From positions 78,282 to 142,281 of the forward strand of contig SCUM01000001.1 of assembly GCA_004297215.1 (NCBI GenBank): 64,000 nt of DNA, read 5' to 3'. A model generated the notes under the pieces. The model saw only the letters and a list, made by a program, of their open reading frames with translations, was not told the DNA's origin and ran no database searches. The stretch comes from Patescibacteria group bacterium (GTDB lineage Bacteria > Patescibacteriota > Patescibacteriia > UBA9934 > GWF2-40-263). Position 1 is the stretch's first letter. Every line of letters starts with the position of its first letter. Positions 25,133-43,165 of this stretch are shown here, one piece after another. The translations under genes and the position numbers were made by a program.

Positions 25133-27814
<2,682 letters not shown>

Positions 27815-27837
27815 GTCCTGTAGGACCGATAAGATCT

Positions 27838-28383
27838 ATGGAGGAATCGCTCATTCCCGCGCACGGCGGGTATCGTAAACTCAAATCGTTCCAGACGACG
27901 ACGATCGTCTATGACTTAACGGTCGATTTTTGCAAACGATTCGTGAAGGAGTATCGGATGAAAGATCAGATGGTCCAGGCGGCCCGTTCGGGACGGCAGA
28001 ACATCGCGGAGGGGTGCCAGGCATCCGGCACGTCCAAGAAAACCGAACTGAAACTGATTGGCGTGGCACGAGCGAGCCTTGAGGAGTTGTTGTTGGATTT
28101 CGAGGATTACTTGCGCCAGCACCAGCTGGCCCGATGGGAAAAGGATCACCCGAAGGCGTTGAGCGTCCGCGCGTACGGCTACGAAGACAATAGATCCTTT
28201 TCGACCTATAAGTCCTATGTGGAAACGGCTGAGAGCGCCGCGAACACCGCTATCTGCCTGATTCACCAGGCCAACTACCTGCTGGATCAGCAGCTTCGTG
28301 CGCTTGAAAAGCGGTTCATGGAAGAAGGCGGATTCACCGAACGGCTTTACAGGATGCGAAAGGAAAATCGTGACGGGACTTAA
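27838..28383 (+). CDS. Four-helix-bundle protein (TIGR02436; '23S rRNA intervening-sequence protein' family)
   Basis: YRKLKSFQ...VYDLTVDFCKRFV...IAEGCQASGTSKKTELKLIGVARASLEELLLDFEDYL. Preceded by palindrome ggtcctgtaggacc. Start of a lower-GC island. Confidence 0.6.
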   Translation: MEESLIPAHGGYRKLKSFQTTTIVYDLTVDFCKRFVKEYRMKDQMVQAARSGRQNIAEGCQASGTSKKTELKLIGVARASLEELLLDFEDYLRQHQLARWEKDHPKALSVRAYGYEDNRSFSTYKSYVETAESAANTAICLIHQANYLLDQQLRALEKRFMEEGGFTERLYRMRKENRDGT

Positions 28384-28427
28384 CGTCGCCTTGCCCAGAG
28401 CGGTTTTTCGTTGCAGGATGGGGAGAT

Positions 28428-28694
28428 ATGGCTGTCGTGCGAAAAAAAATTTTGCCGAAGTTTTTCGAAGCGGTTCTTTCTGGTAAGAAGAACTACGAGC
28501 TTCGGCTGAATGATTTCGACATTTCCGAAGGAGACACGCTGATTTTGGAGGAAATCAATGAAAAAACCCGCGAGCGGACTGGTCGTACGATCGAGAAGGT
28601 CGTCACGCGGGTCGGTCGGTTCAAGATCGATGAATTGTTTTGGCCAAGGGAAGAAATCCTGGAAAAGGGACTCCAGATCATTTCGTTCAATTGA
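28428..28694 (+). CDS. DUF3850/ASCH-like PUA-fold small protein
   Basis: KKNYELRLNDFDISEGDTLILEEINEKTRERTGRTIEKVV. The local GC is markedly lower than the genome background. Confidence 0.5.
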   Translation: MAVVRKKILPKFFEAVLSGKKNYELRLNDFDISEGDTLILEEINEKTRERTGRTIEKVVTRVGRFKIDELFWPREEILEKGLQIISFN

Positions 28695-28716
28695 TTACGC
28701 TTAAGTGTCTTAGGGT

Positions 28717-29259
28717 ATGTCTCGCGTCATCGTCGTCCATGGGTGGGGAGATTCGCCGGAAATCAACTGGATGCCTTGGTTGAAAGCTGAGCTCGAAAAA
28801 CGGAGCTTCAGCGTTCTTGTTCCCGAAATGCCTGACACCGAGCACCCGAATATCGACAAATGGGTCGGGAAACTTCGTGAGGTCGTCGGGGTATCCAGCG
28901 CGGACACGATCCTTGTTGGTCACAGCATCGGCTGTCAGACTATCATGCGGTATCTTGCGACATCCGACATGAAAGTCGGCCGCGTGGTTTTCGTGGCGCC
29001 ATGGTTCACATTGATAGGCCTTGAGGACGAGGAGGTGCTGGTGGCCAGGCCTTGGCTCAACACACCCATCGACTTCGAGGCGGTAAAGCGTTCGGCAGCG
29101 GAAATCGTTGCGATTTTTTCCGACGATGACCCCGTGGTGCCCATCGAGAACGAACGGATGTTCCATGAAAGCCTTGGCGCTCGAACGATTGTCGTACATG
29201 GCAAAGGACATTTCGACGACGCCGAAGCGCCCGAAGTCCTGGCCGAGATCGTTCGTTGA
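28717..29259 (+). CDS. Alpha/beta hydrolase, RBBP9/YdeN-like serine hydrolase (COG3545)
   Basis: VHGWGDSPEINWMPWL...ILVGHSIGC (GxSxG nucleophile)...DDPVVP...HGKGHF. Confidence 0.6.
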   Translation: MSRVIVVHGWGDSPEINWMPWLKAELEKRSFSVLVPEMPDTEHPNIDKWVGKLREVVGVSSADTILVGHSIGCQTIMRYLATSDMKVGRVVFVAPWFTLIGLEDEEVLVARPWLNTPIDFEAVKRSAAEIVAIFSDDDPVVPIENERMFHESLGARTIVVHGKGHFDDAEAPEVLAEIVR

Positions 29260-29268
29260 TTGTTGTGT

Positions 29269-29832
29269 ATGGACTGGCAAAAGGTCCTATCGGACTGGCA
29301 GCGGGAAGAGGAGGAAGCTTGGCGGCCGTTGTATACGGAGTGCGGGTTTGGATCGTGGCTCGAGTGGCGTAAGAGTTACATCGATGATCTGCAGCTCGAG
29401 CGACGGGTTTGGACGGAGACCGTCATAGAGAACCCGCACGATGTTGTCCCGGCTTACGCGATTGGCGGATACAAGGGATGGAAGCCGTACCGGCCGGCGG
29501 GGAAGGATGTCGCGACGTTTGCCGACGTGGCGGCGCCGGCGGCTCCGGGAGAGGTCGCCTTCGACGGAACGCCTCGCTTGGACGTACGGACCAACAGGAA
29601 AGTCGCTTCGCTCGTGGGAGCGCTCCATGATTTCCACATCATCGTGTTGCGTTGCGGGGATTTGAACGTCGTCCTCGAAGGGACGCACCGCTGTGCCGCG
29701 ACGGCGGTCGAAGCGGCCGACGGGAACCGATCGAGATTCAGGCTGACCGTCCGCACCGCCGCGTTTGACTCGAGCGAACGTGCGCTGCTCGAGGAGTTCT
29801 GTCGGGAGCGGGCCGCTGTCATTAAAAAATGA
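29269..29832 (+). CDS. Hypothetical protein
   Basis: ORF with coding-like GC3 bias and no recognisable domain. ATG at 29269; the ORF track begins at TTG 29260. Confidence 0.4.
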   Translation: MDWQKVLSDWQREEEEAWRPLYTECGFGSWLEWRKSYIDDLQLERRVWTETVIENPHDVVPAYAIGGYKGWKPYRPAGKDVATFADVAAPAAPGEVAFDGTPRLDVRTNRKVASLVGALHDFHIIVLRCGDLNVVLEGTHRCAATAVEAADGNRSRFRLTVRTAAFDSSERALLEEFCRERAAVIKK

Positions 29833-29883
29833 ACGTACGCTGCCCCTTGAATCGGACGGCGTTTCGTTGCAGAATGGAGCCCT

Positions 29884-30291
29884 ATGAAATCCGAGCATCT
29901 GATGGCGGACATCCCGTGCAAGGCGTTCGTCGAACGCGACGGGAAAATCCTGTTCGTCCAGGAAGCAGACGGTCCGTGGGCCCTGCCCGGAGGCCGCATC
30001 CATGTGGGCGAGATGCCGCGCGAGGCGTTGAAGAGGGAAATCCGGGAGGAGCTTGGCGTGGATATCGAGGTGGGCGATCCGTTCGACGTCACGGTGTTCA
30101 CGAGCAAGTCCGGGCTGGCGCATCTGGTGGTCGCGTTTCATGCGACAATCGCTGAGGGCCAGGAGCTCGTGGCGGACCCGAGTGAAGTCGCGGCCATCGA
30201 ATGGGTCGGGATCGAGGAGATTCTTACGAGGACCATGCACATCGGATCTCGCTCGATCATCGAACGGCTTGCGAAGCGGGGTACCCCTTGA
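29884..30291 (+). CDS. NUDIX hydrolase
   Basis: Nudix box GGRIHVGEMPREALKREIREELGV. RBS ggag. Confidence 0.8.
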   Translation: MKSEHLMADIPCKAFVERDGKILFVQEADGPWALPGGRIHVGEMPREALKREIREELGVDIEVGDPFDVTVFTSKSGLAHLVVAFHATIAEGQELVADPSEVAAIEWVGIEEILTRTMHIGSRSIIERLAKRGTP

Positions 30292-30332
30292 ACCTTCCGG
30301 CGATACGGGGCAGGATGGCAGTGGAGGTTGCC

Positions 30333-30644
30333 ATGAAGGAAATCCCGAAGCCGGGGACCGAACGGCTGAAGAAGGCGCTCATGGGGCACCCGGCCTTCAG
30401 CGATGTCGACCACGCGCGCCGGCCGGATTCGGTGGACGGGAGCGCATGGGAATGCGAAGCGAACGTGCTCGCGTTCTCCTACCGCGAGCGCCCGTACTTC
30501 GCCCATGTGGGCGACGAGGTCGTGCAGGTCACCCGCCCGGGCGGGTCCGGACGCGAGCGCATGGTCGGCCGGTTCGTCCGCACGGACGCGAGCGACCTCG
30601 CCCGCGCGCTCGCCGCGGCGATCGACGCGGCGGTGCACGAATGA
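30333..30644 (+). CDS. Hypothetical protein (103 aa)
   Basis: ATG preceded by GGAGG with a 5-nt spacer. GC3 bias present. No recognisable family. Confidence 0.4.
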   Translation: MKEIPKPGTERLKKALMGHPAFSDVDHARRPDSVDGSAWECEANVLAFSYRERPYFAHVGDEVVQVTRPGGSGRERMVGRFVRTDASDLARALAAAIDAAVHE

Positions 30645-30666
30645 ATCCATACGCAAGGAGGGACGC

Positions 30667-30960
30667 ATGCTGATCCTTGATTGTTCCGAGTGCCAGGCGA
30701 ACGCCTCCTGCGCGCTCGGGCAGAAGGCGCGCGCCGAGCCCTGTCCGGCGATCGAGCCGGGCCACTGCGGGCTCTCGATGCGGCACCAGTCGGTCGTTGC
30801 CAGGGAGCCGGGGCCGCAGATCTCCTTCGTGTGCGTGAAATGCGGCGCGCACGGGCTCGCCCGCACCACGCGCTCGCCCAGCGCCGAAAAGAAGGTCTCG
30901 TTCGCCGACCCGGTGCGCCCTACCGTCTCCGGCGGCGGGATCCCGGACACGCTCGAATGA
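30667..30960 (+). CDS. Cysteine-rich small protein (putative zinc ribbon)
   Basis: Strong RBS AAGGAGGG. CSECQANASC...CPAIEPGHC...CVKCGAHG. Confidence 0.45.
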   Translation: MLILDCSECQANASCALGQKARAEPCPAIEPGHCGLSMRHQSVVAREPGPQISFVCVKCGAHGLARTTRSPSAEKKVSFADPVRPTVSGGGIPDTLE

Positions 30961-31013
30961 CCTCGTACGCGCGCCTCGACCAGGGGCGCGTTTTTGTCTT
31001 ATGCTGTCCGGGT

Positions 31014-31217
31014 ATGACCGAACCGGGGAAGTACCGCCACTACAAGGGGAACGAGTACGAGGTAATCGGGCTCGCCAGGCATTCGGAAACGCTCGATAAT
31101 ATGGTCGTGTACCGTGCCTTGTACGGCTCCGGGGAGCTCTGGGTCCGCCCCAGGGCGATGTTTGAGGAGGAGGTCGAAGCGGGCGGCGTTCGCCAGCCGA
31201 GGTTCAAGCGGGTATGA
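31014..31217 (+). CDS. DUF1653-family small protein
   Basis: GKYRHYKGNEYEVIGLARHSETLDNMVVYRALYG. 67 aa. Confidence 0.6.
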   Translation: MTEPGKYRHYKGNEYEVIGLARHSETLDNMVVYRALYGSGELWVRPRAMFEEEVEAGGVRQPRFKRV

Positions 31218-31516
31218 GATACGACAAGCTGGTGCGCGACAAGATGCCGGAGCGCATCAGGGCGAAAGGGGAGGCATGCTCGTTTCATGTCGCGGACGAC
31301 GCGGAGTACTGGCAAAAGCTGAAGGCCAAGATGGCCGAGGAGATGGGCGAATTCGTGCGCGACGAGAGCGCGGACGAGGTGGCGGACATCCTGGAGGTGC
31401 TTGACGCCATCATCGCGTACAAGAAGTTCGACCGCGCCGAGATCGAGGCGATCAAGAAGCGAAAATTCGACGAGCGCGGCGGATTCGAGGGACGCATCAT
31501 CCTGGACGAGTCGTGA
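31214..31516 (+). CDS. MazG-like nucleotide pyrophosphohydrolase (phosphoribosyl-ATP pyrophosphohydrolase-like)
   Basis: MRYDKLVRDKMPERI...EEMGEFVRDESADEVADILEVLDAI...KKRKFDERGGF. ATGA overlap with the DUF1653 gene. Confidence 0.65.
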   Translation: MRYDKLVRDKMPERIRAKGEACSFHVADDAEYWQKLKAKMAEEMGEFVRDESADEVADILEVLDAIIAYKKFDRAEIEAIKKRKFDERGGFEGRIILDES

Positions 31517-31576
31517 GTTGACGGATCGTGCCAACGGCATCAAGCTGGCGGCACGTTCCTTTCATCGGGAGGCATC

Positions 31577-32197
31577 TTGGAACCGGATTACAAAGGACAG
31601 CTTTCGCTTCTCACGGGAGACGCGGATCCCACAGCGGCCATCCAGGCCGCCCGCACCGCGTTAGACAGGTTGTGCAAGGGATTCATGTCGTCCGAGTTGC
31701 GTGACGGGATGCTCCTGCGCGCGGCCGAGGAGGCCCGGCAGCAGCTCGTCGCGGTGCGTTCGGCCGGCGCGTATTGCGACCTGGCCGCGTTGATCGCCCC
31801 GTACGCGCGCCAGATCCTGGAGGTCGAGGAAGACCTGCATCTGCAGGAATACGTCGTCCTGCGCCTTCCCGCGGACCTGTTCGTGCAGGCCTTTCTCCAT
31901 GGCAAGGACGTGCGGGAAAAGTGGGAGCTCGCGTTCCTCATCGCGGGAGCGGAGCGCGTCCGAGACCTCATCAAGGACCTATGGGCCGCCGGCAACCTGG
32001 ATGACGCGGCGCTCCTGTACGCGTCGGCCTATTCGGAGGGACGTCGCGAGGACGCGCTCAGTAATTCGCGCGAAACGGCCTGCGACGATGTCCCGAAAGA
32101 CTTCCTCCGCGCGCTCATGGGTTACGACCGATGGCCGGATCCCAAGGCGGTAGCGGGCATCGACGAGTGGATCGCCGAGGAGATTGATCCGAAGTGA
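31577..32197 (+). CDS. Hypothetical protein (206 aa)
   Basis: TTG start with GGGAGG 5 nt upstream. Preceded by the duplicated leader module. No recognisable domain. Confidence 0.4.
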   Translation: MEPDYKGQLSLLTGDADPTAAIQAARTALDRLCKGFMSSELRDGMLLRAAEEARQQLVAVRSAGAYCDLAALIAPYARQILEVEEDLHLQEYVVLRLPADLFVQAFLHGKDVREKWELAFLIAGAERVRDLIKDLWAAGNLDDAALLYASAYSEGRREDALSNSRETACDDVPKDFLRALMGYDRWPDPKAVAGIDEWIAEEIDPK

Positions 32198-32420
32198 GGA
32201 TGATGGCGGACGACGCGACGGGGTGGCAGCGCCCCGTTTTTTAATCTTCCAGGAAACCCCGGGTGAGGGCATCAGCCAGAAACCTGGGGATGAATGGTGC
32301 CTTGCTCGAGATCGAAGCGGGCGGCGTTCGCCAGCCGAGGTTCAGGCGCCTATCATGAGTTGACAAGATGCGCCGCCGGCCACAAGCTGGCGGCGCGTTC
32401 TCTTTCCGAAGGGAGACCCA

Positions 32421-33728
32421 ATGCCAAGCGAGAAGAAGGCCGCGCTCGCTCGGCGGCGGGCCGAGGATCGGGCGGCGCTCGAAAGAGGCGACCATGTCGC
32501 GTTCGACAAGGAAGACATGCCGCGGCTGCCGGCATCCGTGACGCGTTCCTTGGAGGAACATGCGTTCGTGCTCGTGCCGGCGGAGGACGGCGCGGCGCAG
32601 GAGGCCGTGAGGGAGTTCTTTCGCCGATACGGTCCGGCGCTCGACGACCTGGAGGACTGTCCGGCCGTGAACCGGCTGTGCGGGCTCTTCCAGCTCGGGA
32701 TCAAGCGCGACCCGTCGCAGGACGCGGTGCTGCTGCAGCCCGGGAAGGCGGCCGCGCGCGTGAAGACGGCGCCGTTCGTCCATGACCGCCTGACGCACTC
32801 GAAGCAGGTGGCCGCGCACATGGTGGCGCTCGGCTGCACGCTTGGGGAACCGCCGGATCGGCTCGTGGACGCCGCGCTGGGCTCGCTCCTGCATGACACC
32901 GGCCACTGCGCGTTCAGCCATGACGGCGACCAGCTGCTGGTCGCGCGCGGCCGGCCCGACCACGAGATGCGCGGACAGCGGCTCGTCCTCGACGACCCGG
33001 ACATCCGTGAATCGCTCGCGCTCGCCGGGGCAAGACCGGACGCGGTGGTGGCCGTGATGCGGGAACAGGGCCGATACGGGCAGATGCAGAAGCTGATGGA
33101 TACGCTGGCCTACGTGACGCTCGACGCGGAAATGGCCGGCGCGCCGCTCCCGGAGGGGTTCGGCAGCGCCGTGCTCCGCTCCATTTGCGGCGTGGACGAA
33201 CACGGGTTCGCGGTGCGCCATCCGCTGGCGCTCATGGACGTGCTGACGTTTCGCGCCAGGCTTTCCAAGGCGATCTACTACGCCTGGTACAACCGCGTGG
33301 CCGTGGCCATGCTGCAGAAGGTCCTCGGGACGCTGCTCGACGCCGGACGGCTCCCGCTCGAGCGGCTTGAGCGGGGAAGCGACCAGGAGATCGAAATGCG
33401 GACGACGCTCGCCTTGGGCAGTTCCGGCGCATCGGAGGAGGCGTGGCTGCAGAGCGCCAACGCGGTGAGCTACGGGTTCTGGGAGGAGTTCGAACGGCAT
33501 TGGGAACGGCTCGAGTTCGCGGACGGGGACGCGGCCGCAGGGTGGCTCTCCGGCCTCAGCCCCTCCCGCGCGGCCTCCGGCGTCCTGTGCCCGCCGTACG
33601 ATTACACGAAGAAGGCGTTCCTAGCACGCACGAGCCTTGCGGTCGAGCCTCGGCGCCTGCAGGCCTCACCGGACATCATGGATTCGATCGACCGCCAGTG
33701 GATCGCCTGCGCATACAAGCAAGGCTGA
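32421..33728 (+). CDS. HD-domain phosphohydrolase (dGTP triphosphohydrolase-like)
   Basis: HSKQVAAHMVALG...LLHDTGHCAFSHDGD is an HD motif. 435 aa. RBS gggag. Preceded by the second copy of the leader module. Confidence 0.7.
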   Translation: MPSEKKAALARRRAEDRAALERGDHVAFDKEDMPRLPASVTRSLEEHAFVLVPAEDGAAQEAVREFFRRYGPALDDLEDCPAVNRLCGLFQLGIKRDPSQDAVLLQPGKAAARVKTAPFVHDRLTHSKQVAAHMVALGCTLGEPPDRLVDAALGSLLHDTGHCAFSHDGDQLLVARGRPDHEMRGQRLVLDDPDIRESLALAGARPDAVVAVMREQGRYGQMQKLMDTLAYVTLDAEMAGAPLPEGFGSAVLRSICGVDEHGFAVRHPLALMDVLTFRARLSKAIYYAWYNRVAVAMLQKVLGTLLDAGRLPLERLERGSDQEIEMRTTLALGSSGASEEAWLQSANAVSYGFWEEFERHWERLEFADGDAAAGWLSGLSPSRAASGVLCPPYDYTKKAFLARTSLAVEPRRLQASPDIMDSIDRQWIACAYKQG

Positions 33729-33856
33729 CTCGCCCCCGACGCGCCGTCGGGGGATTTTTGTCCTGTATCAGGCTGTGTTACGGTATTTCCTGAAGGGCAT
33801 CGGAGTTGACAAAACAGCCGTTTTCCGCTATGCTCCAGCGTTATTCTGAAGAATCT

Positions 33857-34960
33857 ATGATTAACAAAAACCTCCGTATTTCCGCGGTTGCCACGATGAT
33901 CGGCTTGTCCGGGTCCCTTGGGACCTTTGCGAGCGCCTCCGGGGTAAGCGTTCACACGAACGAGCGCAACCTCGCGCCGAGCGTCTCGTCCTGGTCGCGC
34001 AGCAATGGCGCGGACGTGAACGGCGACGGCACGATCCGCCTGCAGGATCGCGATGACGCTTCGGCTTCGACCGACGTCGCCGTGTCGAGTTCGCGCTCGG
34101 GCGATTACGCCTTGCTCGTGTCCTTCACGCGCGCCACCGGTTCCGGCCGCAATTCAGACTCCATCGCGGGCAAGCCGTATCTCTACGGCTACCTGATGGA
34201 CGGTCGCGACATCCTGGAGTACCTGCAGGACGATTCCATGACCCACCGCGAAGGCGGCGACTGGGGCGTGAGCTACGGCGTGTTCCGCATCCCGAGCGGA
34301 ACGGACAACATCCGGTATTTCCTGAACCAGGGTTCCCGCCGCGGCACGAGCGATGCCGGCCGTGAAGCGTGGTTCTATCGTCCGGGGCTGTTCATCACCG
34401 ACAGCCGTTCCGATGCCATGGACATCGTTGACGCGTATGAGCGTCGCCTGGACGACGTCGAGGACGCGCTCGACGGCCGTTCGTCCAACGACGACCGTTA
34501 CGACAACCCCAATTATGGCAACGGGAATTGTCCCAACGGGTATTGCGATGATGGTCTCACCGGCCCGCCCGTGTATTCCACCGGAACGCTCCTCAAGTGC
34601 CCGGGTCGCGCGGCCGTGTTCTCGGTCACGGGACGCCGCAGCATCCGCCTGTTTCCCAACGAGGACACGTTCTACGCCTGGGGGTACTCGTTCCAGGACG
34701 TCCGGACGATTTCCTGCGCCACGCTCGACCGCTTCGACATGGACGGGAGCTGGACGTACAGCCGCGACAGCCGGCTCATCAAGTTCACCGATTCCCCGGC
34801 CGTGTACACGCTCGACAACGGGCGCTACCTGCGCGGGATTCCCAACGAGCATACGGCCCGCGCCATGTACGGCTCCGACTGGGCCTCGCGCATCCGCCTG
34901 CTCTCGCCGTACGAGCGGTACAACTACGTGATTTCCCATCAGCATCCGAACCGCTACTAA
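33857..34960 (+). CDS. Secreted hypothetical protein
   Basis: Signal peptide MINKNLRISAVATMIGLSGSLGTFASA. Gly/Asp/Asn-rich middle (NPNYGNGNCPNGYCDDG). No recognisable family. Confidence 0.55.
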   Translation: MINKNLRISAVATMIGLSGSLGTFASASGVSVHTNERNLAPSVSSWSRSNGADVNGDGTIRLQDRDDASASTDVAVSSSRSGDYALLVSFTRATGSGRNSDSIAGKPYLYGYLMDGRDILEYLQDDSMTHREGGDWGVSYGVFRIPSGTDNIRYFLNQGSRRGTSDAGREAWFYRPGLFITDSRSDAMDIVDAYERRLDDVEDALDGRSSNDDRYDNPNYGNGNCPNGYCDDGLTGPPVYSTGTLLKCPGRAAVFSVTGRRSIRLFPNEDTFYAWGYSFQDVRTISCATLDRFDMDGSWTYSRDSRLIKFTDSPAVYTLDNGRYLRGIPNEHTARAMYGSDWASRIRLLSPYERYNYVISHQHPNRY

Positions 34961-34963
34961 GAC

Positions 34964-34997
34964 AAACCGCCTCGGGCCTCGGCCTGGGGCGGTTTTT
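34964..34997 (+). terminator. Rho-independent terminator
   Basis: aaaccgcctcgggcc-tcggcctggggcggttttt. Confidence 0.7.
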
Positions 34998-35002
34998 CGT
35001 TC

Positions 35003-35039
35003 GGGTCACTAAGTGACCTCCCTGGTCACTTAGTGACCC
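35003..35039. promoter_or_regulatory. Operator-like double palindrome upstream of rdgB
   Basis: GGGTCACTAAGTGACC-tccct-GGTCACTTAGTGACCC. Two copies of a 13-bp self-complementary site GTCAC-TWA-GTGAC. Confidence 0.5.
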
Positions 35040-35060
35040 GGCGGCTATACTTCTCGCGAT

Positions 35061-35618
35061 ATGGCACGCATTACCCTCGTCACCGGCAATCCGGACAAGA
35101 AGAAGGAGTTCGAGAACGCGCTTTCCGGCACGGACATCGTCATCGCCGATCATCACCTCCACGAAATCCAGTCGCTCAATCTTCGGGAGATCGTCGAGCA
35201 TAAGGTCCGCGGCGCCTATGGATGCGTGAAGGGTCCGGTGATTGTCGAGGACGTAAGTTTCGAGGTCGCGGCCATGAACGGCTTTCCTGGTCCGTTCGTG
35301 AAGTACTGGGCGAACTTGGTGGGCTACGAGAAGGCGCTCATCCTCTGTGAAGCCGAAAAAAACTGGGCTGCCCGGGCCGTTTGTGCCGATGCCTATTTTG
35401 ACGGGAAGCAGCTTGTCTACGTAGAGGAAGCGGTGCCGGGCAGGCTCACCTCGCGTGCGGGCGATGACGGCTTCGGATTCGATTTCTTCTTTATTCCAGA
35501 CGGCTATGACCAGACATTCGCCCAGCTCGGACGAACCGTGAAGAACAAGATTTCCCACCGTGCCCGCTCGCTGCAGGCGCTACGCGTCGCGCTGGCAGAG
35601 AAGGGAATCCTCGCCTGA
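35061..35618 (+). CDS. rdgB: Non-canonical purine NTP pyrophosphatase (RdgB/HAM1, dITP/XTP pyrophosphatase)
   Basis: ITLVTGNPDKKKEF...IVEDVSFEVAAMNGFPGPF...FGFDFFFIP...KNKISHR. Confidence 0.85.
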   Translation: MARITLVTGNPDKKKEFENALSGTDIVIADHHLHEIQSLNLREIVEHKVRGAYGCVKGPVIVEDVSFEVAAMNGFPGPFVKYWANLVGYEKALILCEAEKNWAARAVCADAYFDGKQLVYVEEAVPGRLTSRAGDDGFGFDFFFIPDGYDQTFAQLGRTVKNKISHRARSLQALRVALAEKGILA

Positions 35619-35620
35619 CG

Positions 35621-35741
35621 GTCCAACACCCGGTGTTGGGCCACCGAGTTTCCTAAGAATTTAGGCACTTTAGAAAATCACCCTCACAAAAATCCTAGGA
35701 ATTTCAAGCAAATCTACTTTTCCAACACCGGGTGTTGGACT
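35621..35741. repeat. Inverted hairpin pair flanking an AT-rich ~80-nt core
   Basis: gtCCAACACCCGGTGTTGGgc ... AT-rich core with internal palindromes cctaagaatttagg / cctaggaatttc ... tCCAACACCGGGTGTTGGac. The two termini are reverse complements of one another. Confidence 0.6.
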
Positions 35742-35743
35742 CT

Positions 35744-36097
35744 ATGGCATTTTTCCCCCGCGAAGGCTACCGATTTCTCCTCTTGCACGTCATCCTCACG
35801 GCCTCGGCGTATTTCCTGCTGCTCCGTTTCGTCCCGCAGCTCGGACGATTCGTGTGGCTCGCGGCGCCCAGCGCATCAGGGTTCGTCATCACCATGCTCG
35901 ATAAATTATCGGCGCAGGTACGCGTCCGTCGTATCCCGGAAACGGCGCTCCATGCGATCGCGCTTCTGGGCGGGTCGCTCGGCGTGTTCGCGGGGATGCA
36001 GCTCATGCGCCACAAGACGCGCAAGGTGTCGTTCCAATTCACGCTCACGGCGGTGTTCCTCATCCAGCTCGCCATCCTGTACTTCCTCATGAAATGA
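35744..36097 (+). CDS. DUF1294-family membrane protein
   Basis: IPETALHAIALLGGSLGVFAGMQLMRHKTRKVSF is a DUF1294 signature. Confidence 0.6.
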   Translation: MAFFPREGYRFLLLHVILTASAYFLLLRFVPQLGRFVWLAAPSASGFVITMLDKLSAQVRVRRIPETALHAIALLGGSLGVFAGMQLMRHKTRKVSFQFTLTAVFLIQLAILYFLMK

Positions 36098-36128
36098 AAA
36101 GGCCCGCAGGGAAGCGGGCCAGGATCGG

Positions 36129-36374
36129 TCATTGGCTGACCGGGACGCGTTGCGCCCACGCGTGTTCGCTCACCTCTCCCATGAGGGCGAGCGGCGGGTA
36201 GACGAACAGCACGGCGTTGCACGTTTCGCAGTAGTGGAACCCGACGGAGCAGGCGAACGGCGCCCCGGCCGTGAAGAAGTCCAGTCCGATCTTGCGGCCG
36301 GCGCACCATCGGCATGTCCTGGGCGCTCCGGCCTCGTCGTTGTGGAATTCGAGCGCTTCCTCGATCCGCCGCAT
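36129..36374 (-). CDS. Small zinc-ribbon-like hypothetical protein (81 aa)
   Basis: High GC3 in this frame. TCRWCAGRK...CSVGFHYCETCN are four Cys in two CxxC-like pairs. Start is uncertain. Confidence 0.4.
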   Translation of the reverse strand: MRRIEEALEFHNDEAGAPRTCRWCAGRKIGLDFFTAGAPFACSVGFHYCETCNAVLFVYPPLALMGEVSEHAWAQRVPVSQ

Positions 36375-36604
36375 CCGGAGCGACGGGAGCACGCGTTGCG
36401 GCTCGACCTGGCTCAGGTCGCGCGTTGGTTTCAGTTGCTTCTTCTTGCTGCGTCGGCTCACGCACGCTCCTCGAGTGGGGGAAAGGTCATGGGCGCCCCA
36501 TTGTGTCCGCGGATCCGGGAAGTTGTCAAAGGGATACGCCGTCTTGCGTCTCCTTGCCGTTTCCCCTACACTCCCGTCGTCTAAACGGAGCTCCGGCATC
36601 CCCT

Positions 36605-38683
36605 ATGCAGACCTGGAAAATCAAGCGCAACCATGGCGCTCAGCGCCCCGCCTCGCGCGGCGGTCATCCGCGCGTCGCCACCGCGCTTTTGCTCATCCTC
36701 ACCCTGGCGGGCGCGACATACGATTTTCCCGCGCTCTGGAACGGCTCCGCGTCGTTCGTAGAGGGGAAGACCGGCTGGAGCCTCCCGTCGCTCCCGGAGG
36801 ATCCGTACCGCCTGGGGCTCGACCTGCAGGGCGGCACCCATCTCGTGTACGAGGCGGACATGGCGGAGATCCCCGCCGGCGACCAGGACACGGCCCTCGA
36901 AGGGGTGCGCGACGTGATCGAGCGGCGGGTGAACGCGTTCGGCGTTGCCGAGCCCGTGGTGCAGACGATCACCGCCGGCGGCATCCACCGCCTCATCGTG
37001 GAGCTCGCCGGCGTGCTCGACGTGAACGCGGCGATTGAGCAGATCGGCGAGACGCCGGTGCTCGAGTTCAAGGAGCCGGCCACCGACGTCGGCCGCGAAC
37101 TCACCGCCGAGGAAAAAGCCGCGCTCGCGGCGCTGAATGCGCAGGAGCGCGCGGCGGCCGAGGCCCTGCTCTCGCGCGCCCGCGCGGGCGCGGCGTTCGA
37201 CGCCCTGGTCGCGGAGGCTTCCGTCGAGCCGGGCGCGGATGAGACGAAGGGCGTCTTGGGCGGGGCCGTGGCGGATTCCGCGCGCTACGGCGAGATCGTG
37301 AAGGCGATCCAGCGCAGCGGGGTGCGAGCGGGCGGCATCGTCCCGAAGGTGATCGAGACCCCGGAAGGGTTGAGCGTGGTGAAGTATCTCGGCCAGAAGC
37401 AGGACCGGGAGATGCAGCTGTCCCACATCTTGTTCTGCTTTGAAGGGAAGACCGGCTGCGTGAAGGACGTCCCCGCGCTCGACGCCTCGGTGCGCATGAC
37501 CGCGCTCAGGAAGGATCTCACGGCGGAGAATTTCGCTGAGAAGGCCACGGAACTTTCCGACGACCCGAGCGCGGCGCAAAACGGCGGCGACTTGGGCTGG
37601 GTGAAGCCGGGCGACACCGTGCTGGCGTTCGAACTCGCCGCGCGGCAGGTCGAGAAGGGGAAGATCTCCGAAGCCGTGGAGACCGATTTCGGCTACCACC
37701 TCATCTACAAGCGCGACGAGCGGGCGATCGCCACCTATCAGGTCCAGCGCGTGCTGCTGAAGCTCTCGAAGGACGCCGACGTGGTGCCCGACGCGAGCCC
37801 GTGGAAGAACACCGGGCTTTCCGGCAAGCACCTCGAGCGCGCGAACGTCGCCTTCGATCCTACCTCCGGCGCGCCGCACATCAGCCTGCAGTTCAACTCG
37901 GAGGGGGCCGAGCTGTTCGGCACGCTCACGCAGGCGCATGTGGGCGAGCCCATCGCCATCTTCCTCGACGGCGAGGCCATCTCCGTGCCCACGGTGCAGC
38001 AGGCGATTTATGGAGGCCAGGCCGTCATCAGCGGCACGTTCACGCTCCCCGAGGCCAAGCTTCTCGCCCAGCGCCTCAATGCCGGCGCCTTGCCCGTGCC
38101 CGTGAAGCTGCTGTCGCAGGAAACGGTCGGGCCCTCCCTCGGCGCCGCCTCGCTCGCGGCGAGCGTGAACGCCGCCCTGATCGGTTTCGCGCTGGTCGCC
38201 GCGTTCATGATCCTCGTGTACCGACTGCCGGGGCTGCTCGCGGGCGTGGCGCTCGTCCTCTACGCCGTGCTCAACCTCGCGGCCTACAAGCTGTTCGGCG
38301 TCACCGTCACCCTTTCGGGCATCGCCGGGTTCGTGCTGTCCCTGGGCATCGCCGTGGACGCCAACGTGCTCATCTTCGAGCGCATGCGCGACGAGTGGCG
38401 CGCGGGCCGCGACCTGTCGTCGTCGATCTCCGAAGGGTACCGCCGCGCCTGGGCGCCGATCCGGGACGGGCACCTCACCACGCTCATCTCCGCGCTCGTG
38501 CTGTATTTCTTCAGCTCCAGTTTCGTGAAGGGGTTCGCCCTCACGCTGGGCATCGGGGTGGCGCTGTCGCTGTTCACGGCGCTCACGGTGACCCACGCGT
38601 ATCTCGGCGCGGCCCGCTCCGCCAGGTTCCTTACGGCCCCGTGGCTCTACAGCCTTAAGCGTCCGACGACGGACCCCAAGTGA
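36605..38683 (+). CDS. secD: Protein translocase subunit SecD with an inserted parvulin-type (PpiC) peptidyl-prolyl isomerase domain
   Basis: The SecD N-terminus and C-terminal TM bundle (AVDANVLIFERMRDE) are typical. Between them, residues ~250-480 carry GGDLGWVKPGDTVLAFELAARQVEKGKISEAVETDFGYHLIYKR, a rotamase/PpiC signature. Confidence 0.9.
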   Translation: MQTWKIKRNHGAQRPASRGGHPRVATALLLILTLAGATYDFPALWNGSASFVEGKTGWSLPSLPEDPYRLGLDLQGGTHLVYEADMAEIPAGDQDTALEGVRDVIERRVNAFGVAEPVVQTITAGGIHRLIVELAGVLDVNAAIEQIGETPVLEFKEPATDVGRELTAEEKAALAALNAQERAAAEALLSRARAGAAFDALVAEASVEPGADETKGVLGGAVADSARYGEIVKAIQRSGVRAGGIVPKVIETPEGLSVVKYLGQKQDREMQLSHILFCFEGKTGCVKDVPALDASVRMTALRKDLTAENFAEKATELSDDPSAAQNGGDLGWVKPGDTVLAFELAARQVEKGKISEAVETDFGYHLIYKRDERAIATYQVQRVLLKLSKDADVVPDASPWKNTGLSGKHLERANVAFDPTSGAPHISLQFNSEGAELFGTLTQAHVGEPIAIFLDGEAISVPTVQQAIYGGQAVISGTFTLPEAKLLAQRLNAGALPVPVKLLSQETVGPSLGAASLAASVNAALIGFALVAAFMILVYRLPGLLAGVALVLYAVLNLAAYKLFGVTVTLSGIAGFVLSLGIAVDANVLIFERMRDEWRAGRDLSSSISEGYRRAWAPIRDGHLTTLISALVLYFFSSSFVKGFALTLGIGVALSLFTALTVTHAYLGAARSARFLTAPWLYSLKRPTTDPK

Positions 38684-38684
38684 T

Positions 38685-39590
38685 ATGGCCTTCAGCTTCA
38701 TCCGTCCGCGCCGCCTCTGGTTCGCCATTTCGGCCGTGCTGATCGGCGCCTCGCTCATGGCCCTCGGCCTGTTCGGGCTCAAGTTCGGCACCGACTTCAC
38801 GGGGGGGACGCTGCTCGAGCTCCGGTTCGCGTCGGGGCGCCCGGAAAACGCCGAACTCGCGGGCCTGTTCGCGAACGCCGGATTCCAAGGCGCCACGGTG
38901 CAACCCGCCGGGGAAGACCGCGCCCTCGTGCGTCTCCCTCCGCTCACCGAAGAGGAGCACCAGACGGCCCTCGCCGCCGTGAAGGCCGCGCACGAAGGCG
39001 CATCCGAGCTCCGGTTCAACTCCGTCGGACCGGTGATCGGCAAGGAGCTGCGCACCACGGCCGTGCTGGGCGTCGCCATCACGCTCCTGCTGATCGGACT
39101 CTACATCGCCTACGTGTTCCGCACGGTGAGCGACCCGGTGCCCAGCTGGAAGTATGCCGTGGTCACGCTCATCGCCGCCGCGCACGACGTGATCATCCCG
39201 CTCGGCCTGTTCGCCGTGCTCGGTCATTTCCGGGATTGGGAAGTGAACGCGGGATTCGTGGCCGCCGCGCTCACCATCCTCGGGTATTCCATCTCCGACA
39301 CCGTGGTGGTGTTCGACCGCGTGCGCGAGAACCTGTCGCGGGATTCCTCCGACGCGTTCGAGGACATCGTGGACCGTTCCGTGCAACAGACCGCCGTGCG
39401 CTCGTTCAACACCTCGTTCACGGCGCTCCTCGCCCTCGCCGCCATCCTCGCGTTCGGCGGCGACACCACCCGCCCGTTCGCCGCCGCCCTGTTCGCCGGC
39501 ATCGCGACCGGCACGTATTCGTCCATCTTCATCGCGAGCCCGCTGCTCGTGGAGTGGGAGAAGAGGAACAGGAAGGGATCGGGAGGGTGA
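38685..39590 (+). CDS. secF: Protein translocase subunit SecF
   Basis: GLKFGTDFTGGTLLEL...IIPLGLFAVLG...TVVVFDRVRENL. Starts 1 nt after the secD stop. Confidence 0.9.
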   Translation: MAFSFIRPRRLWFAISAVLIGASLMALGLFGLKFGTDFTGGTLLELRFASGRPENAELAGLFANAGFQGATVQPAGEDRALVRLPPLTEEEHQTALAAVKAAHEGASELRFNSVGPVIGKELRTTAVLGVAITLLLIGLYIAYVFRTVSDPVPSWKYAVVTLIAAAHDVIIPLGLFAVLGHFRDWEVNAGFVAAALTILGYSISDTVVVFDRVRENLSRDSSDAFEDIVDRSVQQTAVRSFNTSFTALLALAAILAFGGDTTRPFAAALFAGIATGTYSSIFIASPLLVEWEKRNRKGSGG

Positions 39591-39767: not shown

Positions 39768-41408
39768 ATGTCCTGGCTTTCCGCTTTCCTTGACGCGCGC
39801 ATCGACGTGCAGCTGTACGTGCTTACGGTCCTGTTCGGTTGGATAGGAACGGCCGCCGTGCTCGCGTGGGGGTTCGTCGAGATGTGGAAGAACCACCGTC
39901 AGGGGCTGTACGTGCAGGGGCTCCAGCACGTGTTGCTCGCGATCAACGTCCCGGCGATGACCGAACAGAGCCCGAAGGCGGTCGAGGCCCTGTTCTCGAA
40001 CCTGATCGGTTCCTTCAGCAACCTCATCTGGAAGGAAAAATGGCTGAAGGGCAAGGTCCAGCCCGTATTCTCGTTCGAGATCGCGTCCACGGAAGGGTAC
40101 ATCCAGTTTTACGTGCACACCCAGACCAAGTACCGCGACGTCATCGAGGCCAACGTGTACGCGCATTATCCCGAGGCGGAGATCGTCGAGGTGGAGGATT
40201 ATGCGGCCTCGGCGCCCACCAAGTATCCGGACGAGCATTATGAGGCTTGGGGGGCCGAAATGACCCTGAGCAAGGAAGAATTCTATCCGCTGCGCACGTA
40301 CGTGGATTTCGAGGACAAGCTCGCCGGGGAATTCCGCGACCCGCTCGGGCAGATGCTCGAAAGCTTCGGCAAGATGCGGCCCGGGGAACACCTGTGGATG
40401 CAGGTGCTGATTTCCCCTGGAAACAACGATTGGAAGGACAAGGGATTGGCCTTCATCGACGAGACCTACGGCAACGTGAAATCGCACAAGCCCGGCATGA
40501 TCGAGGCCGGGATGTCCGCGGCCCTGTCGATCCCCAACGCCATGCTCCAGGAGGTGTTCGGCGGCGCGAGCGAGGACGCGCACGCCAAGAAGGAAGTCGA
40601 CCCGTGGAAGGCGTTCAAGATCACGCCCGTCCAAAAGGAGATTGCCGAGGGGATCTTGCGGAAATGCGGGAAGGTGGGGTTCCCGAGCAAGGTGCGGCTG
40701 GTCTACGTCGCCCGCAAGGAAGCCTTCAATAAGGGTTCGCGCGCGCCCATCCTCAAAGGGATGCTCCAGCCGTATTCCCACCTGAACATGAATTCGTTCC
40801 GGTTTCACGGCTCCAGCGTGCCGAAGGACGATTATTTCTGGCAGCGATGGTCCTTGCCGAAGAAGCAGGGCCGTCTCGTGCGCGCGTTCCGCAAGCGCAG
40901 CTGGACCATCGGCGCCACCCCGAAGGTGCTGAACGCCGAGGAGCTCGCCACCATCTGGCATTTCCCGGCGATCGGGGTGAAGGCGCCTTTGGTGCGGAAA
41001 TCCGAGGCGAAGCGCGGCGAGCCGCCGGTGGACCTCCCCTTGGATTCCGAAGGGGCATTGCCGAAGTTCGTGCGCCGCTCGGAGCCGGAGCCGGATGCGC
41101 ATGGCGACCATGGCCACGGGCATGTCGAAGCCGCGCCTGACGCGACGCACGCCCTCCCGGGACTCCCCACGATCGACGTTCCGGCCGTATCGATGCCTGC
41201 CATGCCCATCTCCGACGCGCCGCCTCGCCGAAGGCCGGTCCAGGCGGAGCCCGAAGCCGAAGAACGCGAGCCGGGCTTGGATGCGACCGACATGGGTCCG
41301 CCCGCGGGCGTGGTGCTCCCGGGCCCGCCGCCCGGGTGGAAGGAAGAGACGAGGGGGGATGGCCCGGCCTCGTCTGACGCCGAGTCGCCGCCGAACCTTC
41401 CGGTATGA
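39768..41408 (+). CDS. Hypothetical membrane-anchored protein (2 N-terminal TM, large soluble domain, Pro-rich tail), partner of a T4CP-like ATPase
   Basis: TM1/TM2 (SWLSAFLDARIDVQLYVLTVLFGWIGTAAVLAWGFV). Soluble region has no recognised family. Ends TIWHFP...Pro-rich. The stop overlaps the downstream start (ATGA). Confidence 0.5.
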   Translation: MSWLSAFLDARIDVQLYVLTVLFGWIGTAAVLAWGFVEMWKNHRQGLYVQGLQHVLLAINVPAMTEQSPKAVEALFSNLIGSFSNLIWKEKWLKGKVQPVFSFEIASTEGYIQFYVHTQTKYRDVIEANVYAHYPEAEIVEVEDYAASAPTKYPDEHYEAWGAEMTLSKEEFYPLRTYVDFEDKLAGEFRDPLGQMLESFGKMRPGEHLWMQVLISPGNNDWKDKGLAFIDETYGNVKSHKPGMIEAGMSAALSIPNAMLQEVFGGASEDAHAKKEVDPWKAFKITPVQKEIAEGILRKCGKVGFPSKVRLVYVARKEAFNKGSRAPILKGMLQPYSHLNMNSFRFHGSSVPKDDYFWQRWSLPKKQGRLVRAFRKRSWTIGATPKVLNAEELATIWHFPAIGVKAPLVRKSEAKRGEPPVDLPLDSEGALPKFVRRSEPEPDAHGDHGHGHVEAAPDATHALPGLPTIDVPAVSMPAMPISDAPPRRRPVQAEPEAEEREPGLDATDMGPPAGVVLPGPPPGWKEETRGDGPASSDAESPPNLPV

Positions 41409-43165
41409 CGAACCCCGCCCACGACCACGAGAACGAGATCACGTATTTCGCCCGTACCAACTTCCGCGGCCAGCTGCGGAAGTTCGGCGTGAAGACCGAC
41501 GACCGGCGCCGGCACGTGTACATCATCGGGAAGACGGGCATGGGCAAGACCACGCTCATGGAGAACATGGTGATCGGCGACATCTACGCCGGGCACGGCT
41601 GCTGCTACGTGGATCCGCACGGCGACACGGCCGAGCGGCTGCTCGATTACATCCCGAGCTGGCGCATCAACGACGTGGTGTACTTCAACCCGGCCGACAT
41701 GGATTACCCGGTGGGGTTCAACATCCTCGAATCGGTCGACCCCAAGAACAGGCACCTGGTGGCCTCCGGCATGATGGGGGTGTTCAAGAAGATCTGGGAG
41801 AACCTGTGGAGCGCGCGCATGGAGTACATCCTCAACAACTCCATCCTGGCGCTCTTGGACAACCCCGGCTCCACGCTCCTGGGCATCAACCGCATGCTCT
41901 CCGACGCCGACTACCGCAAGCGCATCGTGAGCAACGTGAAGGACCCGATCGTGAGCCAGTTCTGGCTCACGGAGTTCGCGAGCTACAACGAGAAGTACGC
42001 GCAGGAGGCCGTGGCCCCGATCCAAAACAAGATCGGGCAGTTCCTGTCCGCGAGCATCATCCGCAACATCGTCGCGCAGGTGAAGTCCACCATCAACATC
42101 CGGGAGATCATGGACGGGGGGAAGATCTTCATCGTGAACCTGTCCAAGGGCCGCATCGGCGAGGACAACTCGCGCCTCCTTGGGGGGCTGCTCATCACCA
42201 AGCTCCAGCTCGGGGCCATGGAACGCGTGGACATCCCGGAGACGGAGCGCAAGGACTTCTACCTGTACGTGGACGAGTTCCAGAACTTCGCCGTGGAGTC
42301 CTTCGCCAACATCCTCTCCGAGGCGCGCAAGTACCGCCTATGCCTCACCTTGGCGCACCAGTACATCGCCCAGCTCTCCGAGGAGGTGCGCGACGCCGTG
42401 TTCGGCAACGTCGGCACGCTCATCGCCTACCGCGTGGGCGCGCCCGACGCCGAGGAGCTCGAGAAGGAATTCGCGCCGCGGTTCGTGGTGGAGGACATCA
42501 TCAACCTTCCCAAGTACAACGTGTACCTGAAGCTCCTCATCGACGGGGTCACGAGCCAGCCGTTCTCCGCCATCACGCTCCCGCCCATCGCGCAGCGCAC
42601 CGGGAGCTCCGACCGCGTGATCAAGGTGAGCCGCGAACGCTACGCCACGGCGCGCGCGGAGATCGAGGAGAAGGTGCTCAAGTGGACCGGCATGGAGGAA
42701 GGGGTGGACGTGGAGAAGCTGCTTGCCGCGGCCGAGGAGAAGAAACAGGCGGCCAAGGGGTCGAGGAAGCCGGCGCACAAGTACAACTGTACCCGCTGCG
42801 GCAAGGAGTTCACGCTGCCGGTGGAGCTCGATCGCAGCCGCCCCATTTACGACGACGAGTGCATCGAGATCGTCCGGGCCGAGCGCAAGGGAGGGAAGCC
42901 GGCATCGAAGCCGCCAGTCGTGAGCCGTCCGCCGGGCGCCGCGGCGACGGTCGCGGCGAAACCGGTTCCGGCCAAGACGGTCCCTCAAAAGCCCGCGAAG
43001 CTCTCTGACGGCGTGATCGTGGAGAAGATCATTACCGATCCAGCCGTGTCCCTTGCCGCGCTCACGGCGGCCAAGGAAGAGCGCGCGGCGAAGGAGAAGA
43101 AGGAGTTCGGTGGGAAGCCGAGGATCGTGGCTTCGAAACCCGGCGACCTGCCGTCGTTCGACTGA
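41405..43165 (+). CDS. TraG/VirD4/TraD-like (type IV coupling protein family) P-loop ATPase with C-terminal zinc ribbon and A/K/P-rich tail
   Basis: Walker A IIGKTGMGKTT, DPHGD, Walker B FYLYVDEFQNF, TLAHQYIAQL. C-terminal NCTRCGKEF...DDECIE zinc ribbon. No TM domain of its own. Confidence 0.65.
   Translation: MTNPAHDHENEITYFARTNFRGQLRKFGVKTDDRRRHVYIIGKTGMGKTTLMENMVIGDIYAGHGCCYVDPHGDTAERLLDYIPSWRINDVVYFNPADMDYPVGFNILESVDPKNRHLVASGMMGVFKKIWENLWSARMEYILNNSILALLDNPGSTLLGINRMLSDADYRKRIVSNVKDPIVSQFWLTEFASYNEKYAQEAVAPIQNKIGQFLSASIIRNIVAQVKSTINIREIMDGGKIFIVNLSKGRIGEDNSRLLGGLLITKLQLGAMERVDIPETERKDFYLYVDEFQNFAVESFANILSEARKYRLCLTLAHQYIAQLSEEVRDAVFGNVGTLIAYRVGAPDAEELEKEFAPRFVVEDIINLPKYNVYLKLLIDGVTSQPFSAITLPPIAQRTGSSDRVIKVSRERYATARAEIEEKVLKWTGMEEGVDVEKLLAAAEEKKQAAKGSRKPAHKYNCTRCGKEFTLPVELDRSRPIYDDECIEIVRAERKGGKPASKPPVVSRPPGAAATVAAKPVPAKTVPQKPAKLSDGVIVEKIITDPAVSLAALTAAKEERAAKEKKEFGGKPRIVASKPGDLPSFD

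Follow-up and report, generated by a model that had tools for sequence, protein, structure and literature searches.

A probable loose neighbourhood of nucleotide-pool maintenance genes in the variable secA–secDF gap of a groundwater Patescibacteria bacterium

Organization of the secA–secD gap

The window analysed here is a 64-kb stretch of contig SCUM01000001.1, from a groundwater bacterium with a tiny genome that belongs to the Uhrbacteria-like Patescibacteria; its G+C content is ca. 65 %, and the closest SecA proteins among species representatives, with at most 61 % identity, are those of Candidatus Uhrbacteria and other Patescibacteria. Between secA and secD there is a gap of 8.5 kb (27815–36313), which begins directly 3′ of secA, ends at secD and contains genes for several putative nucleotide-acting enzymes, all genes of interest being on the + strand. 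The features of the gap and its anchors are listed below, with the supporting open reading frames (ORFs), Pfam match values, codon-usage scores and G+C content at third codon positions (GC3); protein lengths are in amino acids (aa).

25133–27814, + strand: secA, the upstream anchor; ORF whose product is 48–61 % identical to SecA of 80 Patescibacteria genomes
27766–28383, + strand: 23S_rRNA_IVP-family four-helix-bundle protein (Pfam 1.3e-10; low codon score, GC3 0.69), which opens a block of atypical composition
28428–28694, + strand: DUF3850/ASCH-like small protein (Pfam DUF3850 1.9e-14, ASCH 5e-5; GC3 0.58)
28717–29259, + strand: serine hydrolase of alpha/beta fold (Pfam Ser_hydrolase 5.5e-24)
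29260–29832, + strand: 190-aa orphan without family match; codon score the lowest in the block
29884–30291, + strand: NUDIX hydrolase of MutT-like size (Pfam NUDIX 3.9e-18; NUDIX box)
30333–30644, + strand: small orphan ORF A, 103 aa (GGAGG 5 nt before the ATG; codon score +0.38 per codon, GC3 0.89)
30667–30960, + strand: small orphan ORF B, 97 aa, Cys-rich and containing two CxxC motifs (AGGAGG before the ATG; codon score +0.22 per codon, GC3 0.90)
31014–31217, + strand: DUF1653 protein (Pfam 2.9e-28); its stop codon and the next start codon overlap as ATGA
31214–31516, + strand: 100-aa putative all-alpha nucleoside triphosphate (NTP) pyrophosphatase, COG4997-type or MazG-like (names of homologs; invariant acidic residues)
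31577–32197, + strand: 206-aa orphan without family match, last gene of the DUF1653/MazG-like unit (native codon score)
32308–32400, + strand: duplicated remnant of the DUF1653 3′ end and the 206-aa-gene leader (repeat families D2, 91 %, and D6, 75 %)
32421–33728, + strand: HD-domain protein of SAMHD1/EF1143 fold, putative deoxynucleoside triphosphate (dNTP) triphosphohydrolase, with its own terminator-like hairpin
33857–34960, + strand: orphan ORF with an N-terminal signal-peptide-like segment, without family match
35004–35038, no strand: two tandem 15-bp palindromes overlapping the promoter-like site of the Ham1 gene
35061–35618, + strand: Ham1/ITPA-type non-canonical purine NTP pyrophosphatase (Pfam 1.7e-37)
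35732–36097, + strand: DUF1294 membrane protein (Pfam 2.7e-19)
36129–36461, − strand: small ORF just upstream of secD
36314–39590, + strand: secD (with a parvulin-type insertion) and secF, the downstream anchor (ORFs; tblastn to relatives)

The original prediction, made from the sequence, had placed a cluster of nucleotide-hydrolysing enzymes and small orphan proteins on one strand at 29884–35618, and all of its genes are indeed on the + strand at or near those positions. That extent covers the right-hand two thirds of the gap; the 206-aa gene and the boundaries set by secA and secD had been overlooked. The enzyme assignments were essentially right, as judged from the Pfam matches of the NUDIX, DUF1653 and Ham1 proteins and, for the MazG-like protein, from the names of its homologs, and the components of the cluster belong to known enzyme kinds. 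The two small orphans, one of them Cys-rich, were also borne out: ORFs A and B are probably real genes without detectable relatives, because they have strong Shine-Dalgarno sites, native codon scores and high GC3 (0.89–0.90). Neither these two nor the 190-aa and 206-aa proteins had family matches in library scans. The signal peptide of the protein encoded at 33857–34960 was judged by eye only, and the ATG at 33857 is its likely start because a promoter-like site (33806–33834) lies within the longest ORF.

Content of the secA–secD gap in relatives

A SecA-anchored scan of species representatives produced 80 loci, 45 of which could be evaluated for secD. This gene was downstream of secA and on the same strand in 24 of the 45, at distances from 71 bp to 8.9 kb (median 2.0 kb) and with variable intervening content. 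The flanks of the window are syntenic with those of relatives L006–L008, with murC, murB, hpf and secA on one side and secD, secF and DUF8128 and traG-like genes on the other; the gap of these relatives contains a DUF1653/MazG-like fusion together with HicAB, cupin, NUDIX and HAD genes. Relative L002, which was found through its homolog of the MazG-like protein, has a 12-kb gap with five NUDIX genes as well as HIT, Maf, HAD, CYTH, DUF1653 and MazG-like genes. A Pfam census of 110 gap genes was headed by NUDIX (8 genes), and included phosphoribosyltransferases (4) and NTPase_I-T, deoxynucleoside kinase and HAD proteins (2 each).

Enrichment was evaluated by Fisher tests on the clustered called genes of the SecA-anchored loci, excluding those loci found through the MazG-like protein, by comparing 338 genes downstream of secA with 613 flank genes. 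NUDIX genes occurred 15 times downstream, in 12 loci, and three times in the flanks (p = 3.8e-5), and MazG-like/DUF1653 genes were found seven times, in six loci, and never in the flanks (p = 7e-4). Genes restricted to the downstream side were also those for nucleoside-deoxyribosyltransferase-like proteins (4 genes; p = 0.016) and, with three genes and p = 0.045 each, those for NTPase_I-T (ITPase/XTPase), ASCH and serine hydrolase proteins, the latter from three relatives. NUDIX genes were often among the first one to three genes 3′ of secA. An unannotated family of ca. 118 aa without Pfam match (e.g., L013, 19217–19573; also L015 and L016) likewise followed secA in five of the SecA-anchored relatives and was absent from all flanks.

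The gap resembles the flexible islands and integration hot spots found between core genes in its fixed position, conserved anchors and variable length and content, and in that the window carries a recent block of atypical composition. It differs from them in that no integrase, nearby transfer RNA (tRNA) gene or attachment (att)-type repeats were found in the window, and in that the gap content has a recurring theme of nucleotide metabolism. A search of the full-text literature found nothing on clusters of NUDIX or house-cleaning genes in Patescibacteria or the Candidate Phyla Radiation (CPR), and the positional bias of nucleotide genes is a modestly new element.

Predicted transcription units

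Terminators and promoters were sought by consensus scanning of the sequence. A terminator-like hairpin with a 9-bp stem and a T run (30969–30991) follows ORF B, and similar hairpins are located directly 3′ of the stop codons of the 206-aa gene (32217–32238), the HD gene (33733–33753) and the gene for the secreted protein (34976–34990); in turn, promoter-like sites were found 5′ of the HD, secreted-protein and Ham1 genes. The four hairpins after stop codons and the internal promoter-like sites argue against a single operon, for which the expected combination of short gaps and absence of internal terminators was not found. Only the DUF1653, MazG-like and 206-aa genes are apparently co-transcribed, and the cluster splits into at least four or five predicted units.

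Immediately upstream of the Ham1 gene (35004–35038) there are two perfect 15-bp palindromes, GGTCACT(A/T)AGTGACC (GGTCACTNAGTGACC), in tandem and 20 bp apart; the window has no further copy, and of the loci fetched only the contig of the same organism contains them. Their arrangement suggests a candidate repressor operator and, with it, that the ITPase gene may be regulated. At the other side of this gene, between the Ham1 stop and the DUF1294 start, perfect 19-nt inverted repeats (GTCCAACACCCGGTGTTGG / CCAACACCGGGTGTTGGAC) flank an unusually AT-rich core of 82 nt; a miniature inverted-repeat element and a regulatory region are two possibilities for this segment (35621–35740).

Traces of recent assembly

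The four genes directly 3′ of secA (27766–29832) have the lowest codon scores of the neighbourhood and a GC3 of 0.58–0.74, compared to 0.74–0.91 elsewhere, suggesting that this block is a recent foreign insertion. The core genes, from NUDIX to DUF1294, show native codon usage (the median codon-usage score of the window is 0.33 per codon). A motif of ca. 30 nt, CGG(T/C)(T/G)TTTCGTTGCAG(G/A)ATGG, appears at 28401–28430 and 29857–29886, 5′ of the DUF3850 and NUDIX starts, with a partial third copy at 34982–35001, 3′ of the secreted-protein gene; the DUF3850, serine hydrolase and 190-aa genes of the atypical block lie between copies one and two.

Directly 5′ of the HD start, a 46-nt copy of the 3′ end of the DUF1653 gene, 91 % identical, adjoins a second copy of the 206-aa-gene leader. 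This duplicated remnant (32308–32400) is colinear with 31170–31215 and 31511–31558, and the MazG-like ORF is precisely absent from it; since the remnant was duplicated ahead of the HD gene, the HD and 206-aa genes share a homologous 5′ leader. The atypical block, the bracketing motif and the duplicated remnant indicate that the present gene arrangement is probably young and was built via local insertion and duplication.

The NUDIX and Ham1 proteins

The NUDIX box GRIHVGEMPREALKREIREELG (29992–30057) fits the consensus GX5EX7REUXEEXGU perfectly and is the sole copy in the window, and the protein belongs to the superfamily according to its score against Pfam PF00293 (66 bits, cut-off 21). Its scores against NCBIfam equivalogs were all far under the cut-offs, reaching no substrate-specific class; against the MutT (8-oxo-dGTPase) equivalog TIGR00586, for instance, it obtained 36.5 bits with a cut-off of 97.9.

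The Ham1 protein contains a full-length domain, with 129.6 bits against PF01725 (Ham1p_like) over profile positions 1–184 of 186. Among solved proteins it is closest to the archaeal NTPases PH1917 (1.4e-23) and MJ0226, with E. coli RdgB ranking behind, and it remained below the cut-offs of the RdgB equivalogs TIGR00042 (112.9 bits, cut-off 145.35) and PRK14821 (124 bits, cut-off 203). It is nearer to archaeal and eukaryotic ITPases than to E. coli RdgB and, by these comparisons, is a divergent, archaeal-like member of the Ham1/ITPA family.

House-cleaning NTP pyrophosphatases (MutT/NUDIX, RdgB/Ham1/ITPA and MazG/HisE) are usually dispersed across genomes. The window shares with them a NUDIX box, a full-length Ham1 domain and a 100-aa protein carrying an EExxE...ExxD acidic motif; here, in contrast, they are grouped in one variable gap.

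The DUF1653 and MazG-like pair

The 100-aa protein has 532 homologs, mainly from Patescibacteria, with 58–78 % identity, which are named house-cleaning noncanonical NTP pyrophosphatase (MazG superfamily) by JGI and nucleoside triphosphate pyrophosphohydrolase by NCBI. An alignment of 29 members of the family showed invariant residues E42, E43, E46, E55, D58 and E61, which form the EExxE...ExxD pattern and correspond to the acidic metal-binding motif of the MazG/HisE superfamily. Nevertheless, single-sequence searches of Pfam, NCBIfam and PDB produced no significant match, including to the curated MazG and PRA-PH models, and a search of PDB with the family profile found nothing. A relaxed Pfam scan of the 29 members matched PRA-PH in four (best E 0.037) and MazG in two (best E 0.02), the rest being mostly coiled-coil noise; hhalign against verified HisE sequences was non-significant (E 0.032, probability 1.6 %), although it aligned the expected metal-binding helices. 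Because our own profile tests were non-significant, the assignment relies on the names in the source databases, and we consider the protein to be probably MazG-like.

The only solved relative of the DUF1653 protein is PDB 3be3 (2e-10), described as an 'uncharacterized protein', and no function for DUF1653 was found in the full-text literature. Its gene and that of the MazG-like protein have an ATGA overlap in the window, are adjacent in L015 and are fused in L006–L008, that is, in three lineages, and the recurrent pairing of DUF1653 with a small NTP pyrophosphatase is a modestly new element. The fusion product has 126 aa (L006, 10001–10381, protein P0064; also in L007 and L008) and is present on 8–12 contigs from Hainich groundwater metagenomes and one NCBI assembly. 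In it, DUF1653 is truncated by ca. 14 C-terminal residues and the MazG-like protein by its 24 N-terminal residues, with loss of the KLVRD motif that is invariant in the MazG-like family. The fusion may have derived by deletion from an adjacent gene pair.

The HD protein, a divergent relative of SAMHD1 and EF1143

Word-indexed searches with the HD protein, either as a single sequence or as a profile, found essentially only the protein itself, and Pfam gave only a weak HD match. An exhaustive HMMER search retrieved 131 cluster representatives among 1.84 billion, the best being 51 % identical. The alignment of this family conserves R123, H126, H158, D159, H167, D170, H181, E182, D227, Y231, D235, R278 and Y286, while H162 is incompletely conserved and is replaced by Y in some of the closest relatives. 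These residues include the complete set of the SAMHD1/EF1143 type, with the metal ligands H...HD...D (H126, H158, D159, D227), the catalytic H and D (H167, D170) and the H-E pair (H181/E182); we take R164, H167, H206, D207, H215, H233, D311, Y315, D319, R366 and Y374 to be the equivalents of conserved residues in human SAMHD1.

The family profile matched EF1143 (1e-19), the Aquifex protein 2hek (1.6e-19) and SAMHD1 (1e-14), and Dgt-type enzymes only at 1e-7 or worse and over short stretches. AlphaFold with the alignment modelled the protein with a predicted local distance difference test (pLDDT) score of 96 and a predicted template modelling score (pTM) of 0.94, compared to a pLDDT of 40 from the single sequence, and Foldseek aligned the whole length of the model to EF1143 and SAMHD1, so that both the HD lobe and the C-terminal lobe have the fold of this type. 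The resemblance to EF1143 of Enterococcus faecalis and SAMHD1 (COG1078-type; PDB 2o6i/3irh/4lrl, 2hek, 2q14, 7ujn) extends to the motifs R-x-x-H-S, HD-x-G-H-x-x-F-S-H-x-x-D, H-E, D-x-x-x-Y-x-x-x-D and R-x7-Y, although identity is merely 14–17 %, the HD family is small and the window protein has no SAM domain. In contrast, the protein differs from the deoxyguanosine triphosphatases (dGTPases) of the E. coli Dgt type and of anti-phage systems: NCBIfam dGTPase models gave 17–24 bits (cut-offs 152–494), covering the HD motif only; the Dgt family TIGR01353 scored 17.4 bits (cut-off 152.35) over residues 117–173, and the structural match to Dgt was clearly weaker than to the SAMHD1/EF1143 group. Sequence and model therefore place the protein, in spite of its strong divergence, within the SAMHD1/EF1143 fold; its active site is intact and its dNTPase activity putative. 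The protein had been predicted to be dGTPase-like, which holds for the relationship to SAMHD1/EF1143, by profile and by fold, and not for a likeness to Dgt; the opposite possibility, a generic HD phosphohydrolase unrelated to either Dgt or SAMHD1, fails. This divergent SAMHD1-like clade, barely recognised by current family models, is a modestly new element.

A metagenome scan with a 10-sequence HD alignment returned seven close family loci. Relatives with 51 % (the closest) and 40 % identity are divergently oriented beside tsaD/tsaE, and others adjoin mnmA/alaS, pyruvate kinase, polysaccharide genes, or HSP20 and ABC transporter genes; one is 1.5 kb from a serine recombinase gene. None of the close loci has secA, secD, NUDIX, MazG-like or Ham1 genes nearby, and the HD gene is unlinked to the other nucleotide genes of the gap.

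Other features of the window

The window SecD (36314–38683) contains an inserted parvulin-type peptidyl-prolyl isomerase (Rotamase/PpiC) domain, with a visible motif GGDLGWV...GYHLI, and the Rotamase domain also appears in the Pfam list of SecD from L006–L008. Minus-strand ORFs of 110–133 aa without Pfam match are located just 5′ of secD in the window, in L002 (13746–14147, −) and in L006 (13606–13995, −); in the window (36129–36461), a promoter-like site and a terminator-like hairpin accompany the ORF. Upstream of the gap, a bacterial alpha-2-macroglobulin of 1974 aa (14867–20791) is encoded beside a PBP1-type gene and, downstream, a TrwB/TraG-like coupling protein (41405–43165) follows secF and a DUF8128-like gene, in the same order as in relatives.

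Discussion

We consider it reasonably probable that the region is a loose neighbourhood of independently expressed genes for nucleotide-pool maintenance, and that it occupies a variable, lineage-specific gap separating secA from secDF. The lineage would thus tend to place small accessory nucleotide-pool genes in this insertion-prone gap, and the window would have five separate nucleotide-acting elements, with orphans between them: NUDIX, the translationally coupled pair of DUF1653 and COG4997-type MazG-like genes, HD, Ham1/ITPA and the ASCH-like gene. Judging from their families, the NUDIX and MazG-like enzymes would hydrolyse (d)NTPs that are damaged or non-canonical, leaving monophosphates, Ham1 would clear inosine, deoxyinosine and xanthosine triphosphates (ITP, dITP, XTP), and the HD enzyme would strip the triphosphate off dNTPs, trimming or balancing the pool. 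The enzymes would act independently, not as one operon, a complex or a defence system, and the gene set would have been assembled recently through local insertion and duplication. Such a pool-cleaning set would suit an organism salvaging rather than making nucleotides; because CPR bacteria are often unable to synthesise nucleotides (PMC7304191), a role in salvage hygiene is plausible.

Several observations weigh against this interpretation. The exact gene set of the window appeared in no other genome seen, and the closest SecA is only 61 % identical. Ham1 was downstream of secA in just one other locus (L020), the HD gene sits elsewhere in every relative found, and about half of the gap genes are orphans or have no link to nucleotides. 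Additionally, the control for the enrichment consisted of conserved flanks rich in core genes and was not genome-wide, the profile scores that would place the 100-aa protein in the MazG superfamily are non-significant, and enzyme activities and substrates are predicted from the families. The co-location that had been called unusual is therefore supported for NUDIX and MazG-like/DUF1653 genes, by their enrichment 3′ of secA, and not for the exact set. Similarly, a sanitation island gains support from the NUDIX, MazG-like, DUF1653, ITPase-type and salvage genes that relatives put in the secA–secDF gap; the genes are not one predicted operon, and the HD gene is unlinked. Scattering of the genes in relatives, named as contrary evidence in the original prediction, is seen for the HD gene, whose relatives lie in unrelated housekeeping contexts.

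A coincidental grouping would produce much of the same picture: a permissive site gathers unrelated accessory genes, of which small hydrolases are merely the commonest kind, with no selection for co-location. The several independent predicted transcription units, the traces of recent insertion and duplication, the scattering of the HD gene and the highly variable content, different in each relative and including unrelated genes such as those for L,D-transpeptidases, Band 7 proteins, ABC transporters and toxin-antitoxin pairs, all agree with it. Yet chance gathering does not sit well with the higher density of NUDIX and MazG-like/DUF1653 genes 3′ of secA than in the flanks, in 12 and 6 independent loci, respectively, with the frequent location of NUDIX genes in the first one to three positions after secA, or with the adjacent, overlapping or fused DUF1653 and MazG-like genes of three lineages, and we find it rather unlikely. 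Equally unlikely is the stronger proposal that the gap is a lineage-wide, fixed hot spot of nucleotide hygiene, in which selection would retain sanitising and salvage enzymes (NUDIX, the COG4997 NTP pyrophosphatase partnered by DUF1653, ITPases, dNTPases and ASCH proteins) because the symbionts would depend on scavenged, chemically dirty nucleotides; the HD protein would represent an undescribed CPR clade of SAMHD1-like enzymes and DUF1653 would be a subunit or regulator of the MazG-like enzyme; we mention it as a doubtful extension of the loose neighbourhood.

The original prediction had also contemplated a defence-related locus, and in such a locus the SAMHD1-like HD enzyme, possibly aided by the NUDIX and Ham1-like proteins, would deplete dNTPs during infection and the gap would be a defence island. 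That dGTPase/SAMHD1-like enzymes can counter viruses by depleting dNTPs is well established (PMC13519002); this is a likeness of mechanism and not evidence on the use of this gene. The HD protein does have the full SAMHD1-type catalytic set and fold, and its gene stands alone in a variable region, between a promoter-like site and a terminator-like hairpin of its own; but the protein is of the SAMHD1/EF1143 type, whereas the dGTPase defence described uses the Dgt type, and its relatives are in the housekeeping contexts indicated above, not in defence islands, as is also the case in the window. The weak PADLOC matches to dGTPase (1e-5) and to the NUDIX model PDC-S07 (1.6e-18) carry little information, as the former spans just 58 residues around the HD motif and the latter is generic, having matched all eight NUDIX proteins tested from gaps of relatives; the other cluster genes gave nothing but noise-level matches of the 100-aa protein (E 0.003–0.008). 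The Ham1 protein resembles, at the family level, KomB of a defence system, although the solved proteins nearest to it are canonical archaeal ITPases. Gaps of relatives sporadically hold HicAB, reverse-transcriptase and mad-type genes, but in the window the codon usage of the core genes is native, and neither an integrase gene, a nearby tRNA gene nor an adjacent partner gene of a known system is present. No complete known defence system was found in the cluster, nor was any full-length match to a defence model combined with defence neighbours, and a role in defence seems to us quite improbable.

Two more specific candidates were rejected. A HAM1-like KomB of a Kongming-type system needs partner genes, and the neighbours of Ham1 are the orphan secreted protein and DUF1294 genes instead. 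A prophage or mobile element was discarded from generic-only PHROG matches, the sole tRNA gene of the window, 20 kb away, and the absence of flanking att-like repeats.

The loose neighbourhood of nucleotide-pool genes also carries a caution, in that an HD/dNTPase-like gene in a variable region need not mean phage defence. It provides two leads: a very divergent SAMHD1/EF1143-like clade, hardly seen by current models, and the pairing of DUF1653 with a small NTP pyrophosphatase, which could give DUF1653 a role. If the positional bias is real, it would offer a genomic handle on how ultra-small symbionts that do not synthesise nucleotides keep their scavenged nucleotide pool clean.

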